Shown one piece after another: positions 1-40,299 of a stretch of 40,299 nucleotides of DNA. Position 1 is the stretch's first letter. Each line of letters opens with the position of its first letter. The DNA is from Escherichia phage UFJF_EcSW4, in the sequence record PP856269, one strand, 5' to 3'. A program made the translations under genes and the position numbers. The notes under the pieces were generated by a model. It saw only the letters and a list, made by a program, of their open reading frames with translations, was not told the DNA's origin and did no database searches.

Positions 1-286
1 CAAGAACCTCAAGTCTCCCCATAGGCCCTCTTTCAGTCTCGACCAAAGGCCCTACCCCAGTATATCATAAGGTTGGACCGATGGTCAAGACTTCAGGTCA
101 ACGATAGGTGGTGACTATGGCTTCGGGAAGGACGATAGGTGGTGACTATAGGCCCTCTTTCAGTCTCGACCAAAGGCCCTACCCCAGTATATCATAAGGT
201 TGGACCGATGGTCAAGACTTCAGGTCAACGATAGGTGGTGACTATGGCTTCGGGAAGGACGATAGGTGGTGACTATTGGTCTGTCT
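1..286. repeat. Direct terminal repeat, left copy (286 bp, identical to 40014-40299)
   Basis: First 286 nt (caagaacctcaagtctcc...gactattggtctgtct) recur exactly at the window end; T7-like phages carry direct terminal repeats. The true DTR may extend beyond the window edge. Confidence 0.9.
21..276. repeat. Two tandem 128-bp units (21-148, 149-276) inside the terminal repeat, each holding two copies of an 18-bp motif ACGATAGGTGGTGACTAT
   Basis: Read directly: ataggccctctttcagtctcgaccaaaggccctacccc...ggtggtgacta repeats head to tail with period 128; the 18-mer sits at 101-118, 132-149, 229-246 and 260-277. Confidence 0.9.
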
Positions 287-317
287 TTTGAGTCTCTATC
301 TGTATCAGACCTTGAGT

Positions 318-392
318 CACTACCTACAGTCTAACTACCTACAGTCTAACTACCTACAGTCATCGACCATCGGTAATGCAGCTACCTACAGT
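318..392. repeat. Short tandem repeats CTAACTACCTACAGT (two full copies, one partial, plus a fourth TACCTACAGT at 383-392) just inside the left DTR
   Basis: Read directly at 319-360 and 381-392; a related CCTAC(A/G)GT array lies just inside the right DTR. Confidence 0.85.
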
Positions 393-8695: not shown

Positions 8696-9391
8696 ATGGC
8701 TAAAGAGCAACTGAAGACTTTCACCACTCCGGTAGCTGGTATCGTTGAGCCTTACGCATGGCTGAACAAAGCAGACACCAAGTTTAACGAGCGTGGTGAG
8801 CATAAGGTTAACCTGACATTCGACCTGAGCAACCCGAAGGTCCGTAAGATGATTGATGTCTTACAGAAGATTCACGACGATGCGTATGCGAAAGCACTCG
8901 CAGACCACGAGAAGAACCCACCTCAGGTTCAGCGTGGCAAGAAGCCTATTGAACCACGAGAAGGCGACATGCCGTGGATTGAGAATGGTGACGGTACTGT
9001 TACCATGAAGTTTAAATGCTTCGCGTCTTACCTGAAGGATGGTAAGTCTGAGCCTATCATATTACGGTTCTACGACACCGATGCTAAGTTAATCCGTGAC
9101 GTCCCGAATATTGGCGCTGGCTCAAAGCTGAAGGTCAAGTTTAAAGTCCTGCCGTTTAAGTGGAACGCTGCGACTGGTGCAAGCGTTAAGCTCCAACTTG
9201 AGTCCTGCCTTCTGGTAGAACTGAAGGAGTGGAAAGGTGATGGTGCTGGTGGCGATGGTGGCTGGGGTGACGATGAAGACCTCGGTACTGGCTACAAAGC
9301 GTCAACCGATGGTGACTTCGGGTCTGATGACTTCGGTGACGATGGTTCCGAAGGTGGTGACGATGATTCCGAAGGCGATTACAACTTCTAA
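8696..9391 (+). CDS. 2.5: Single-stranded DNA-binding protein
   Basis: 231 aa; GDMPWIENGDGTVTMKFKC, GAGSKLKVKFKVLPFKWNAATGASVKLQLES and the acidic C-terminal tail ending in F match T7 gp2.5. Confidence 0.95.
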   Translation: MAKEQLKTFTTPVAGIVEPYAWLNKADTKFNERGEHKVNLTFDLSNPKVRKMIDVLQKIHDDAYAKALADHEKNPPQVQRGKKPIEPREGDMPWIENGDGTVTMKFKCFASYLKDGKSEPIILRFYDTDAKLIRDVPNIGAGSKLKVKFKVLPFKWNAATGASVKLQLESCLLVELKEWKGDGAGGDGGWGDDEDLGTGYKASTDGDFGSDDFGDDGSEGGDDDSEGDYNF

Positions 9392-36549: not shown

Positions 36550-36744
36550 ATGATTGAGTTAGACTTCAAGAATGAGGTCCTTAAAGCCTCTCCTATAGTC
36601 GGGACCGCTGCGGCTGATGGTGCCAGTCGGTTCTTCTTCGGACTTACACTGAACGAATGGTTCTACGTTGCAGCTATCGCGTACACCGTTGTCCAGATTG
36701 GTGTGCTAGTCTACAAAACGATTAAAGGAGGTGGTAAAACATGA
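36550..36744 (+). CDS. 17.5: Holin (class II)
   Basis: ASPIVGTAAADGASRFFFGLTLNEWFYVAAIAYTVVQIG matches T7 gp17.5 (AAPIVGTGVADVSARLFFGLSLNEWFYVAAIAYTVVQIG). Confidence 0.88.
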   Translation: MIELDFKNEVLKASPIVGTAAADGASRFFFGLTLNEWFYVAAIAYTVVQIGVLVYKTIKGGGKT

Positions 36745-37004
36745 CGCAGATGGACTTAGAGAAGTTCCTATTGATGCTTGATACTGAGCGTGCTCGACTT
36801 ATGCTGCAAGACTTGCGGGATGACACTAAGCGTTCACCTCAACTCTACAACGCCATTGAGAAGCTACTGGCTCGTCACAACTTTGTGTTAAGCAAGGTGT
36901 CTGTTGACGAGAAGACGCTCGCTGATATGGAGGCCCTGAACGCAGAGTACGATAAGGTGCTCTCCGCTACGGAAGATAATGACACCGGGTATGGTGTTCA
37001 GTAA
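36741..37004 (+). CDS. 18: Terminase small subunit (DNA maturation protein A)
   Basis: FLLMLDTERARLMLQDL...RSPQLYNAIEKLLARHNF matches T7 gp18. Confidence 0.88.
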   Translation: MTQMDLEKFLLMLDTERARLMLQDLRDDTKRSPQLYNAIEKLLARHNFVLSKVSVDEKTLADMEALNAEYDKVLSATEDNDTGYGVQ

Positions 37005-37105: not shown

Positions 37106-37555
37106 ATGCTCGAATTTTTAAAGAGATCGGCTCCGTGGTTACTTGCAGCAGTGATGTTTGCTGGTGGATACCACACCGCTAACAATAAGTGGGAGGCTAA
37201 GGTCAATGAAGAATACACCTCGAATCTTAAGGCATCGGAAGATACAAGGCTTGCTGTCCAAGCTGAAGTCAACAAAGTGTCCAAACGGTTTCAGGACGAA
37301 ATGTCCTCGCTGGAAGGCAGCACTGATAGGATTATTGCTGACCTTCAGTCTGACAATAAGCGGCTGCGCATCCGAGTCAAACCAACGAGTGGAACCACGC
37401 AAAGTGACGGTCGATGCGTCATTGATGGTTACGCCGAACTTGATGAACGAGATGCTAAACGTCTTATCGCCATCGGAGTGAAAGGAGACAAGTGGATTAA
37501 GGCCCTTCAGGACACTGTGAGAGCCTTGCAGCAAGATAAGGAGGTGACGCATTGA
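37106..37555 (+). CDS. 18.5: i-spanin (Rz-like inner-membrane lysis protein)
   Basis: [21 protein letters not shown]... and [34 protein letters not shown] match T7 gp18.5. Confidence 0.85.
37206..37481 (+). CDS. 18.7: o-spanin (Rz1-like outer-membrane lipoprotein), embedded in the +1 frame of the i-spanin gene
   Basis: [25 protein letters not shown] (lipobox ISGC) and C-terminal [17 protein letters not shown] match T7 gp18.7; start taken at the ATG with an upstream SD; the track ORF begins at a TTG at 37158. Confidence 0.75.
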   Translation: MKNTPRILRHRKIQGLLSKLKSTKCPNGFRTKCPRWKAALIGLLLTFSLTISGCASESNQRVEPRKVTVDASLMVTPNLMNEMLNVLSPSE

Positions 37556-39315
37556 GTAAAGATTTAGTGGCGCGTCAGGCGCTAATGACTGCCCGTATGA
37601 AGGCAGACTTCGTGTTCTTCCTGTTCGTCCTGTGGAAAGCTCTGTCACTACCAGTCCCGACTCGCTGTCAGATTGACATGGCGAAGAAACTATCGGCTGG
37701 GGACAACAGGCGTTTCATCCTACAGGCGTTCCGTGGTATCGGGAAGTCATTCATTACGTGCGCATTCGTGGTATGGAAACTGTGGAACAACCCAGACTTG
37801 AAGTTCATGATTGTGTCGGCCTCAAAGGAACGAGCCGATGCAAACTCCATCTTCATCAAGCGAATCATCGACCTCATGCCTCAGCTTCGGGAACTCAAAC
37901 CTAAGCAGGGGCAGCGAGATGCGGTTATCAGCTTCGACGTTGGACCAGCCAAGCCAGACCACTCACCTTCGGTTAAGTCCGTTGGTATCACTGGTCAGTT
38001 GACTGGTAGTCGTGCTGACATCCTGATTGCCGATGACGTGGAGGTTCCGAACAACTCAGCGACTCAGGCTGCCAGAGACCGTCTGTCAGAGCTTGTGAAA
38101 GAGTTCGACGCTATCCTGAAGCCGGGAGGTACAATCATCTATCTGGGTACTCCTCAGAACGAGATGACCTTGTATCGTGAGCTGGAAGGCCGTGGGTACA
38201 CCACTACTATCTGGCCTGCTCGTTATCCACGCGACAGGAAGGACTGGCAGTCTTACGGCGACCGTCTGGCTCCAATGCTTCAGGCAGAGCTTGAAGAGGA
38301 CCCTGAGTCATTCTACTGGCGTCCGACTGATGAAGTACGCTTCGATGATACGGACCTTAAGGAACGTGAGCTGTCATATGGTAAGGCTGGCTTCGCTCTA
38401 CAGTTCATGCTTAACCCGAACCTGAGTGATGCCGAGAAGTACCCACTGAAGCTCCGTGACCTTATCGTAGCGGACTTGGACCCAGCGTCCAGCCCAATGG
38501 TCTACCAATGGTTACCGAACCCTCAGAACAAGCGTGAGGACGTTCCTAACGTTGGACTCATGGGTGACTCGTACCACACGTATCAGACTGTAGGTTCTGC
38601 CTTCAGCTCATACACCCAGAAGATTCTGGTCATTGATCCTAGTGGCCGTGGTAAGGATGAAACTGGCTATGCGGTACTGTACCAGCTTAATGGCTACATC
38701 TTCGCTATGGAAGTTGGTGGTATGCGTGGTGGTTATGAAGACTCTACGCTTGAAGCACTGGCTAAGATTGGTCGTAAGTGGAAGGTCAACGAATACGTCA
38801 TTGAGGGTAACTTCGGTGATGGTATGTACCTTGAGCTATTCAAGCCTGTAGCGGCCCGTATCCATCCTGCTGCTGTAACTGAAGTGAAGAGTAAGGGTCA
38901 GAAAGAACTCCGCATCTGTGACGTTCTGGAGCCTATCATGGGGTCTCACCGACTTATCGTTAACGCTGCTGCTATCGTTCAAGACTACCAGTCAGCCTCT
39001 GATAAGGATGGTGTTCGTAACCCTATCTACTCTCTCTTCTACCAGATGACACGTATATCTCGTGAACGTGGAGCCTTGGCACACGATGACCGACTTGATG
39101 CGCTGGCTATCGGTGTACAGTTCTTCGTTGAGTCTATGGCGAAGGATGCCAACAAAGGCGAACGTGAAGTCACTGAGGAGTGGTTGGAAGAACAGACGGA
39201 GAACCCACGTAAAGGCTTCGAGTCAATCCACACGGAGTTCTGGGACAATGGGGTCCGGGTAACTCACGATACGGACGACGAGCTGGGACTAGGGTCCTAC
39301 GTTACGTTCCACTAG
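37552..39315 (+). CDS. 19: Terminase large subunit (DNA maturation protein B)
   Basis: [123 protein letters not shown] match T7 gp19. Likely TTG start overlapping the spanin stop with TAAGGAGG at spacing 7; first in-frame ATG is at 37585. Confidence 0.95.
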
Positions 39316-39409: not shown

Positions 39410-39432
39410 ACTTAACTATCACTATAGGGAAG
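39410..39432 (+). promoter_or_regulatory. Phage RNAP promoter (phiOR-position, right end)
   Basis: ACTTAACTATCACTATAGGGAAGACC; +1 at 39427. Confidence 0.75.
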
Positions 39433-39606: not shown

Positions 39607-39765
39607 ATGGGTAAGACCAAGGCTGTTCTTAAAGCTCTGGCGACCAATAGAGCTACTTACAGGTTTCTTGCTGCTGTTCTACTTGCTGCTGGCGTTACTG
39701 CTGGAAGTCAGTGGGTCTGGTGGGTCGAGACTCTCGTATGTACTCTGGTGTCTGAGTGTCATTAA
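39607..39765 (+). CDS. Possible small membrane protein, 52 aa (gene 19.5 position)
   Basis: AGGAGG then ATG at spacing 8; MGKTKAVLKALATNRATYRFLAAVLLAAGVTAG...; below the track cutoff. Confidence 0.4.
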   Translation: MGKTKAVLKALATNRATYRFLAAVLLAAGVTAGSQWVWWVETLVCTLVSECH

Positions 39766-39789
39766 CGCCATCATGGTAACAATCAACGA

Positions 39790-39830
39790 AAGCAAGACCT
39801 AAGGTCAGTTCATAGCTGACGCTACTCTAC
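39790..39830 (+). other. Perfect 11-bp stem, 19-nt loop hairpin after the last ORF
   Basis: CTAAGGTCAGT ... ACTGACCTTAG read directly; no U-run follows, so function (pause, terminator or packaging) is unknown. Confidence 0.35.
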
Positions 39831-39921
39831 TGACCTTAGCTACTGTAGTCAAGGACTTTAGGTAACACCTTAAGAGAAGCTCACTTAGGGTCATCCTACT
39901 TATTGGTCTATCCTAGTGTCG

Positions 39922-39966
39922 CCTGACCTACGGTCCTTGACCTACAGTTGCTGTGGCCTACAGTAG
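39922..39966. repeat. Three imperfect TG(A/G)CCTAC(A/G)GT repeats just inside the right terminal repeat
   Basis: tgacctacggtcc / tgacctacagttg / tggcctacagtag; the CCTACAGT core is also in the array at 318-392 next to the left DTR. Confidence 0.7.
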
Positions 39967-40013
39967 TGACGATGAGTTTTGGACCAAAAGTTTGAGACCA
40001 CATCTCACAGTTC

Positions 40014-40299
40014 CAAGAACCTCAAGTCTCCCCATAGGCCCTCTTTCAGTCTCGACCAAAGGCCCTACCCCAGTATATCATAAGGTTGGACCGATGGTCA
40101 AGACTTCAGGTCAACGATAGGTGGTGACTATGGCTTCGGGAAGGACGATAGGTGGTGACTATAGGCCCTCTTTCAGTCTCGACCAAAGGCCCTACCCCAG
40201 TATATCATAAGGTTGGACCGATGGTCAAGACTTCAGGTCAACGATAGGTGGTGACTATGGCTTCGGGAAGGACGATAGGTGGTGACTATTGGTCTGTCT
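40014..40299. repeat. Direct terminal repeat, right copy (identical to 1-286)
   Basis: Exact identity with the window start, including the internal 128-bp tandem duplication. Confidence 0.9.

Follow-up and report, generated by a model that had tools for sequence, protein, structure and literature searches.

In bacteriophage T7, the terminal repeat (TR) is flanked by arrays of short repeats, which were reportedly described by Dunn and Studier in 1983 and named SRL (left) and SRR (right). To our knowledge, these TR-flanking repeats have lacked an assigned function ever since the genome sequence was obtained, and no account or test of them was found in the open full-text literature. In P1, lambda, and SPP1, the pac hexamers on both sides of the cut, the R sites of cosB, and the boxes of pacL and pacR, respectively, are oriented repeats bound by the small terminase.

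At the concatemer junction of T7, gp18 is stated to recognise PacB, and gp19 to cut at PacC (PMC9860248). The gp18 proteins of T7 and T3 are 93% identical and interchangeable, and T3/T7 packaging specificity has been attributed to gp19 and other sequences (PMC3276506). A single element has been characterised that makes the phage RNA polymerase pause at this junction, the strictly sequence-specific class II heptamer ATCTGTT (bioRxiv 10.1101/2021.01.11.426313; 10.64898/2026.02.12.705533; PMC3276506), and the T7 polymerase-lysozyme complex is reported to pause there and to interact with gp18 and gp19 so that maturation starts (PMC3276506).

The window analysed here is the whole record PP856269 of Escherichia phage UFJF_EcSW4 (40,299 nt), which, as judged by its sequence, is a full K1F-like genome (Autographiviridae, Studiervirinae, Kayfunavirus). 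In megablast searches with both ends, ~250 GenBank phage records matched the end regions, nearly all of them enterobacterial T7-group podoviruses, and the closest records were Escherichia phage Vec13 (96%), other Kayfunavirus isolates, and K1F (91%). The junctions were compared among 15 Kayfunavirus genomes, from phages that infect E. coli, Salmonella, Cronobacter, and Enterobacter, and T7, T3, and one Yersinia phage were included as well; ~10 further Kayfunavirus contigs were added later, giving ~25 relatives in all. The GenBank phage collection was far richer in relatives than IMG/VR, where a scan with the CTCTATCTGTATCAGACC anchor returned 4 contigs only. Scans of IMG/VR and GTDB genomes for three closely spaced copies of CCTACAGT, the core of the repeats described below, returned mostly unrelated tandem repeats from many organisms, indicating that this triple pattern is not specific to Kayfunavirus phages, and only the ~40-kb IMG/VR contigs were usable as extra relatives.

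The T7-group end architecture is present in this genome, with TCTCAYAGT at the left end, ATCTGT after the TR, and a gp18/gp19 terminase. The small terminase, a gp18 homologue of 87 aa (36741-37004, + strand), matched PF11123 (E = 3e-12) and shares 52% identity with T7 gp18, and the large terminase, a gp19 homologue of 587 aa (37552-39315, + strand), matched PF22530, the T7 terminase RNaseH-like domain (E = 7e-38). Downstream of them, a phage RNA polymerase promoter core, TCACTATAGGGA (39419-39430, + strand), occupies the position of phiOR in the T7 annotation, followed by a gene 19.5-like ORF of 52 aa (39607-39765). Transcripts from this phiOR-like promoter would cross the right array and the TR to reach ATCTGTA. 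At the other end, the early region contains a sigma-70-like promoter at 830-859, its first gene-sized ORF begins at 1038, and no phiOL-like phage promoter was found beside the left array at ≤2 mismatches to the core.

In the record itself, positions 1-286 are identical to positions 40014-40299. The conserved left-end sequence TCTCACAGTTC at 40003-40013 precedes the right copy of this repeat, and the right end of the record is without the last 11 nt of the homologous TR (287-297). The records of K1F, Vec13, and T7 start with TCTCACAGT, and the same sequence at 40003-40011 (+ strand) is the homologue of the physical left end, on the basis of homology with T7, K1F, Vec13, and Peacock. Each relative contains exactly one TCTCAYAGT and one TATCTGT 178-230 bp downstream of it, which here lie at 40003 and 297, respectively. 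By homology, the TR would thus consist of 40003-40013 plus a body at 1-297 (+ strand), suggesting that the actual TR is most likely ~308 bp long and offset by 11 bp from the record ends; the ends of PP856269 are therefore best treated as shifted by 11 bp. Directly after the TR lies ATCTGTA (298-304, + strand), the counterpart of the T7 class II pause/termination heptamer ATCTGTT, which separates the TR from the left array and is invariant in Kayfunavirus. The seventh base of this junction heptamer is A here and in the Yersinia phage, and T in T3. It was also observed that TCTCACAGT at 40003-40011 and CCTACAGT have C..ACAGT in common (6/8 positions), which may be due to chance.

The TR of ~308 bp compares with 178-193 bp in all 15 aligned relatives. 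The Peacock repeat was called by PhageTerm as 179 bp, the Vec13 repeat is annotated at 1-179, and the repeats of related Citrobacter phages, established by run-off sequencing, are 183-190 bp long (PMC4925675). The TR of the present phage contains a perfect 127-bp tandem duplication (21-147 and 148-274; also 40034-40287), which is shared by no relative and accounts for 127 of the 129 bp in excess of the usual 179 bp. This duplication could be either a recent real event or an assembly effect, the two copies in the record being identical by construction. Each 127-bp copy carries one leftward sigma-70-like promoter match on the minus strand (59-88 and 186-215; TTGACC, 18 nt, TATACT, with TG), and these matches are reminiscent of A0, a T7 promoter that also points leftward and is annotated at 224. 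Another anomaly was seen in PP328844 (phage 216Ecol046PP), whose ends are rearranged: a fragment of the early region adjoins an additional copy of the TR and is followed by a second junction with a right array, TR, and left array, and a 141-bp tandem duplication takes in two units. The arrangement in PP328844 is either a genuine rearrangement or an assembly chimera.

The left array (322-406, + strand) is composed of four exact A-CCTACAGT-C units and one decayed unit. Direct reading and a pattern search placed the exact CCTACAGT copies at 323-330, 338-345, 353-360, and 385-392, in the layout ACTACCTACAGT, two copies of CTAACTACCTACAGT, and then, 21 nt further, CTACCTACAGT. The first three units sit in the 15-bp tandem CTAACTACCTACAGT, and Tandem Repeats Finder reported a repeat, ACTACCTACAGTCTA, at 319-361 with a period of 15, 2.9 copies, and 100% match. 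The fifth unit is decayed to CATACAGT (399-406) in this phage and is an intact CCTACAGT in Vec13 and K1F. The right array (39926-39964, + strand) lies before the right TR copy and consists of ACCTACGGT (39926-39934), ACCTACAGT (39940-39948), and GCCTACAGT (39956-39964), which, read with their flanks, are TGACCTACGGT (39924-39934), TGACCTACAGT (39938-39948), and TGGCCTACAGT (39954-39964). All units of both arrays are on the + strand. The left array begins 26 nt past the TATCTGT that overlaps the TR end (T297), and the right array stops 38 nt short of TCTCACAGT; this layout is identical in the 15 relatives, T7, and T3.

The original prediction had placed short repeats near 318-392 on the left and three units at 39922-39966 on the right, and had proposed that the arrays bracket the TR in a concatemer. 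The left repeats were recovered by direct reading, the pattern search, and Tandem Repeats Finder, and the three right-hand units were read as CCTAC(A/G)GT at 39927-39964. The proposed bracketing also holds, in that both arrays lie outside the TR even after correction of the ends. These positions indicate that, with the arrays adjoining the TR on both flanks, a single TR is bracketed at each junction in the replicative concatemer.

In the whole genome, 14 copies of CCTACAGT were observed, compared to 1.75 expected from dinucleotide shuffles. The internal copies amount to eight, four per strand, for which maximal-order Markov models predict 3.2 and 2.5, respectively. The internal count therefore matches the background, and only the end clusters are special; a role of the internal copies as dispersed functional sites was rejected, as both strands carry them, and just as often as the heptamer composition predicts. 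Relative to the internal + strand rate, the Poisson probabilities were 1e-10 for the left cluster and 5e-8 for the right cluster. In 100 simulated genomes, no 8-mer reached four copies in 75 bp (maximum, 2-3), and the left array is the densest 8-mer cluster of the entire genome. The sole other region with three copies of an 8-mer (of the GGTGACGATG type) within 100 bp is 9266-9375, which includes a 21-bp tandem repeat (9335-9375) and is presumably a coding repeat.

Conservation at the ends of relatives, which had been named as the test of the original prediction, was found throughout, with no Kayfunavirus in the comparison departing in the motif, its strand, or its two locations. Both the core A-CCTACAGT-(C) and the direction in which it points are preserved in the ~25 relatives, among which the spacer sequence, the spacer length (13-16 bp), and the left copy number (2-7 exact units) vary freely. 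In a logo of the 82 exact units from the 15 junctions, all of which are on the + strand (82/82), the 8-mer is invariant, an A precedes it (-1) in 90% of the units, a C follows it (+1) in 63%, and the other flank positions carry <0.8 bit each. The amplified period differs among the phages: CTAACTA plus the core is found in this phage, Vec13, Esher2, and an SH3-like contig, and other phages have amplified CTAACCAA, CCTACAA, CTCACTAA, or CAACA with the core, giving periods of 13-16 bp overall. In addition, a second left unit type, CCATAAGT, is present in K1F, LNA3, BDX03P1, CHX131, and Salmonella phages. In this comparison of sequences, the motif, and not the repeat period, was shown to be under selection, because the core is conserved across independently amplified periods.

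Column-by-column conservation resolved four invariant non-coding blocks, at 39828-39866, 39923-39952, 39969-40022, and 297-306, of which the second holds right units 1 and 2 and the third runs through the left end. Right units 1 and 2 are invariant, and the right-flank sequence GACCTACGGTccttGACCTACAGT is identical in 15/15 junctions. They are as fixed as the cut site, even in the Salmonella and Cronobacter phages, where the adjacent upstream sequence has diverged. Right unit 3 is variable across the relatives, appearing as CCTACAGT, tCTACAGT, CCTAAGG, CCTACGGT, or CCTTAAG. The invariant block from the right array to the left-end cut site (39965-40002, + strand) is a candidate pac-type recognition core, and positions 39973-39992 within it are 100% invariant in the 15 relatives. 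A candidate site for dimer binding within the pac-type region is the perfect palindrome TTTTGGACCAAAA (39977-39989), which lies in this block 14 nt before the left-end site.

Upstream of the right array, two inverted units are found at 39842-39863 on the minus strand (reverse complement ACCTAAAGTCCTTGA-CTACAGT), which form an inverted repeat with 39926-39948. One of them is an exact T7-type ACCTAAAGT, inverted and conserved at 39855-39863, and minus-strand matches to the unit occur at -161 and -148 in nearly all relatives. The arms of the inverted repeat, each comprising two units and their spacer, are 22-23 nt long and 62 nt apart; both arms are invariant, and the intervening 62-nt spacer has diverged in the Salmonella and Cronobacter phages. 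Pairing of the inverted and direct arms dominated the predicted single-strand DNA fold of 39785-40012 (z = -3.5). Further upstream, just after the gene 19.5 homologue, lies a hairpin (39799-39839, + strand) in which the 11-bp arms, CTAAGGTCAGT and ACTGACCTTAG, pair perfectly around a loop of 19 nt. Its arms are conserved in all relatives with two unrelated versions of the loop, and no T-run follows it, indicating that it does not resemble an intrinsic terminator.

On the basis of these comparisons, we tentatively propose, with somewhat less than an even chance of being correct, that a DNA-binding component of the packaging machinery, encoded by the phage, may recognise the units as oriented sites that mark the concatemer junction. 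The most likely candidate for such a component would be the small terminase gp18, which, alone or together with gp19, would bind ACCTACAGTC in a sequence-specific manner, and several copies bound on either side of the TR would mark and organise the junction. A fixed pac-type recognition region could comprise the right array, where two of the units are invariant, together with the inverted units that precede it and the invariant block extending to the left-end cut. Phage RNA polymerase starting from the phiOR-like promoter may then stall at ATCTGTA after the TR and help to recruit terminase, as reported for T7, and the left array would provide a redundant, copy-number-tolerant set of the same sites beyond the TR.

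Recognition of the units by terminase is plausible from the sequence comparison. The unit changes with lineage, being CCTAAAG in T7 and T3, CCTACAGT or CCATAAGT in Kayfunavirus, and CCTTATG in the Yersinia phage, which fits a co-evolving phage protein. The unit is shared where gp18 is 93% identical (T7/T3; PMC3276506) and changed where the identity is 52% (this phage), but all other proteins co-diverge, so gp18 cannot be picked out by this co-variation. That the units point the same way on either flank would suggest a process that reads across the junction, rather than protection of opposite DNA ends. A role in end protection or a Chi-like role was likewise rejected, as the units have the same orientation at both genome ends and are not mirrored. 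Against the proposed recognition, the spacings of 13-16 bp are out of helical phase, so that simple cooperative binding to one face of the helix is not indicated, and the range of 2-7 exact left units implies that no particular left copy is needed. As the unit is common to T3 and T7, it cannot be what determines T3/T7 packaging specificity.

Several other explanations were weighed against recognition by a packaging component. The rapid shifts in left copy number and period between close relatives, together with the fresh duplications nearby (127 bp in the TR here and 141 bp in phage 216Ecol046PP), would be expected if the arrays were functionless, microsatellite-like debris of slippage or unequal recombination at hot spots near the ends. 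Slippage, however, keeps the whole period, whereas only the 9-10-bp core is conserved between phages with differing spacers. Right units 1 and 2 are, moreover, invariant and non-tandem, in a block as conserved as the cut site, the orientation of the units is uniform, and arrays of related motifs occupy the same two places in three other lineages, so that a neutral origin appears quite unlikely. The inverted repeat raises a different idea, in which the right direct units would pair with the inverted units 62 nt upstream to form a hairpin or cruciform that primes or guides TR duplication, the repeats (39842-39863 with 39926-39948) mattering as pairing partners and not as protein sites. A hairpin model has been put forward for T7 concatemer processing (Chung, Nardone and Hinkle 1990, as cited in PMC4925675). 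The inverted repeat is real, its pairing prevails in the predicted fold, and the spacer between its invariant arms has diverged in two groups of phages. On the other hand, the arms never vary and hence offer no compensatory change that would prove pairing, the left array has neither an inverted partner nor exact minus-strand units nearby, and no comparable inverted unit was seen in the T7 right flank when inspected by eye only. Taken together, a role of the repeats as DNA structure is considered unlikely.

The position of the left array, in the leading few hundred bp and upstream of the early promoters, would also suit binding sites for another protein that acts at genome entry or replication, for example a nucleoid protein of the host, or an early or internal-core protein of the phage that handles the DNA arriving first in the cell. 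T7 DNA enters the cell left end first. The motif nevertheless differs between T7 and K1F, both phages of E. coli, which argues against a host protein, and this reading as a whole is quite improbable. The original prediction had named pause signals, next to terminase recognition, as a role to be expected from the arrangement of the arrays. A polymerase from the phiOR-like promoter does cross the right array, and a pause at the junction has been documented for T7 (PMC3276506), but the documented signal is ATCTGTT, the counterpart of which occupies the separate invariant site 298-304, CCTACAGT bears no resemblance to it, and the left array lies downstream of the ATCTGTA pause site. The pause role was therefore probably misassigned, and it is very unlikely that the units halt either the phage RNA polymerase or a translocating terminase motor. 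The left array falls within a mechanical ORF (276-440; 54 aa, start codon TTG), and homologous CDSs are annotated as hypothetical proteins in MZ234022 and MZ234011. The length across the left array from anchor to anchor, however, ranges over 127-204 nt in the relatives and includes every mod-3 class, each of the three frames is interrupted by stop codons in most relatives, and K1F, Vec13, and T7 annotate nothing there; the stop codons indicate that the left array is non-coding despite the ORF, and a protein-coding repeat is extremely unlikely. T7-type primase requires 5'-GTC in the template, and the units of this phage end in AGTC, but the bases ahead of GTC differ from the pentamers that T7 primase prefers, and among the T7 units the last three bases can be GTC, GCC, or GAC; the idea of primase sites was accordingly dropped.

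Recognition of the units and pairing of the inverted repeat could also be combined. In such a joint reading, the flanking units would form a lineage-specific 'junction barcode', and the inverted/direct pair of the right flank would extrude as a hairpin that primes TR duplication. The oriented units to the left and right of the TR would be where a ring of the small terminase loads, and the switch of the core among CCTAAAG, CCTACAGT, CCATAAGT, and CCTTATG would set which co-infecting T7-like phage's concatemers a terminase processes. If this were true, one repeat family would serve both recognition and TR duplication, although the combination as a whole is quite doubtful.

In the K1F group, these comparisons place the 9-10-bp core under strong selection and leave the spacing and the left copy number free. 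The comparison narrows experiments on the units to a few defined substitutions and supplies a natural series of cores for specificity swaps. Packaging plasmids, transducing particles, and rebooted genomes derived from K1F-type therapeutic phages should include both arrays, the region 39799-40011, and ATCTGTA, and not the TR alone.

The arrays very probably correspond, in Kayfunavirus, to the short repeats found on either side of the T7 TR, and the analogy with T7 drawn in the original prediction is thereby upheld both in position and in sequence. In T7, CCTAAAG occurs after the TR in eight exact copies and several variants, and before the left end in two exact copies and two CCTAAGG variants; the T3 arrays likewise consist of CCTAAAG, and those of the Yersinia phage of CCTTATG. 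The cores of T7/T3 and of this phage are one base apart (ACCTAAAGT vs ACCTACAGT). The T7 arrays occupy the same two positions, one directly past the TR and ahead of the early promoters, the other in the interval from gene 19.5 to the left-end site, and the arrays of T7 and Kayfunavirus are alike in being non-coding, with a 7-8-bp core in a single orientation at 13-16-bp periods. Conversely, the T7 TR contains three units, whereas the Kayfunavirus TRs contain none within one mismatch, some Kayfunavirus left arrays, unlike those of T7, mix in CCATAAGT, and the conserved pair of inverted units upstream of the Kayfunavirus right array has no equivalent that could be seen by eye in the T7 right flank. 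The T7 sequence straight after ATCTGT is TACAGTC, which matches the Kayfunavirus unit, possibly by chance. In two mutant T7 clones, MZ375266 and MZ375248, which, at positions 60-170, have 11-bp and 18-bp deletions inside the TR, the junction heptamer TATCTGTT is changed to TCTCTGTT or TACCTGTA and all CCTAAAG units of the left array are unchanged, but the 2-3 substitutions in the region are too small a number to reveal constraint.

The pause heptamer is a single site after the TR in T7 (ATCTGTT), as it is here (ATCTGTA), with T as the seventh base in T7 and A in this phage. The T7 heptamer has been described as tolerating no change for T7 polymerase (bioRxiv 10.1101/2021.01.11.426313). The cognate polymerase here is a different enzyme. 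The sites of P1, lambda, and SPP1 likewise consist of several short oriented repeats flanking the region of terminase cleavage, but their sequences and proteins are unrelated, and theirs are the systems in which binding has been demonstrated. This kind of feature has been known in T7 for four decades, and the comparative data would not surprise a T7 specialist; what is added is a Kayfunavirus example with comparative data. Overall, the order phage promoter, gene 19.5, right array, TCTCAYAGT, TR, ATCTGT, left array, and early promoters is common to T7, T3, and this phage, and, where PacB and PacC provide the concatemer-junction signal in T7 and T3, the right array together with 39965-40011 occupies the place expected for such a signal.
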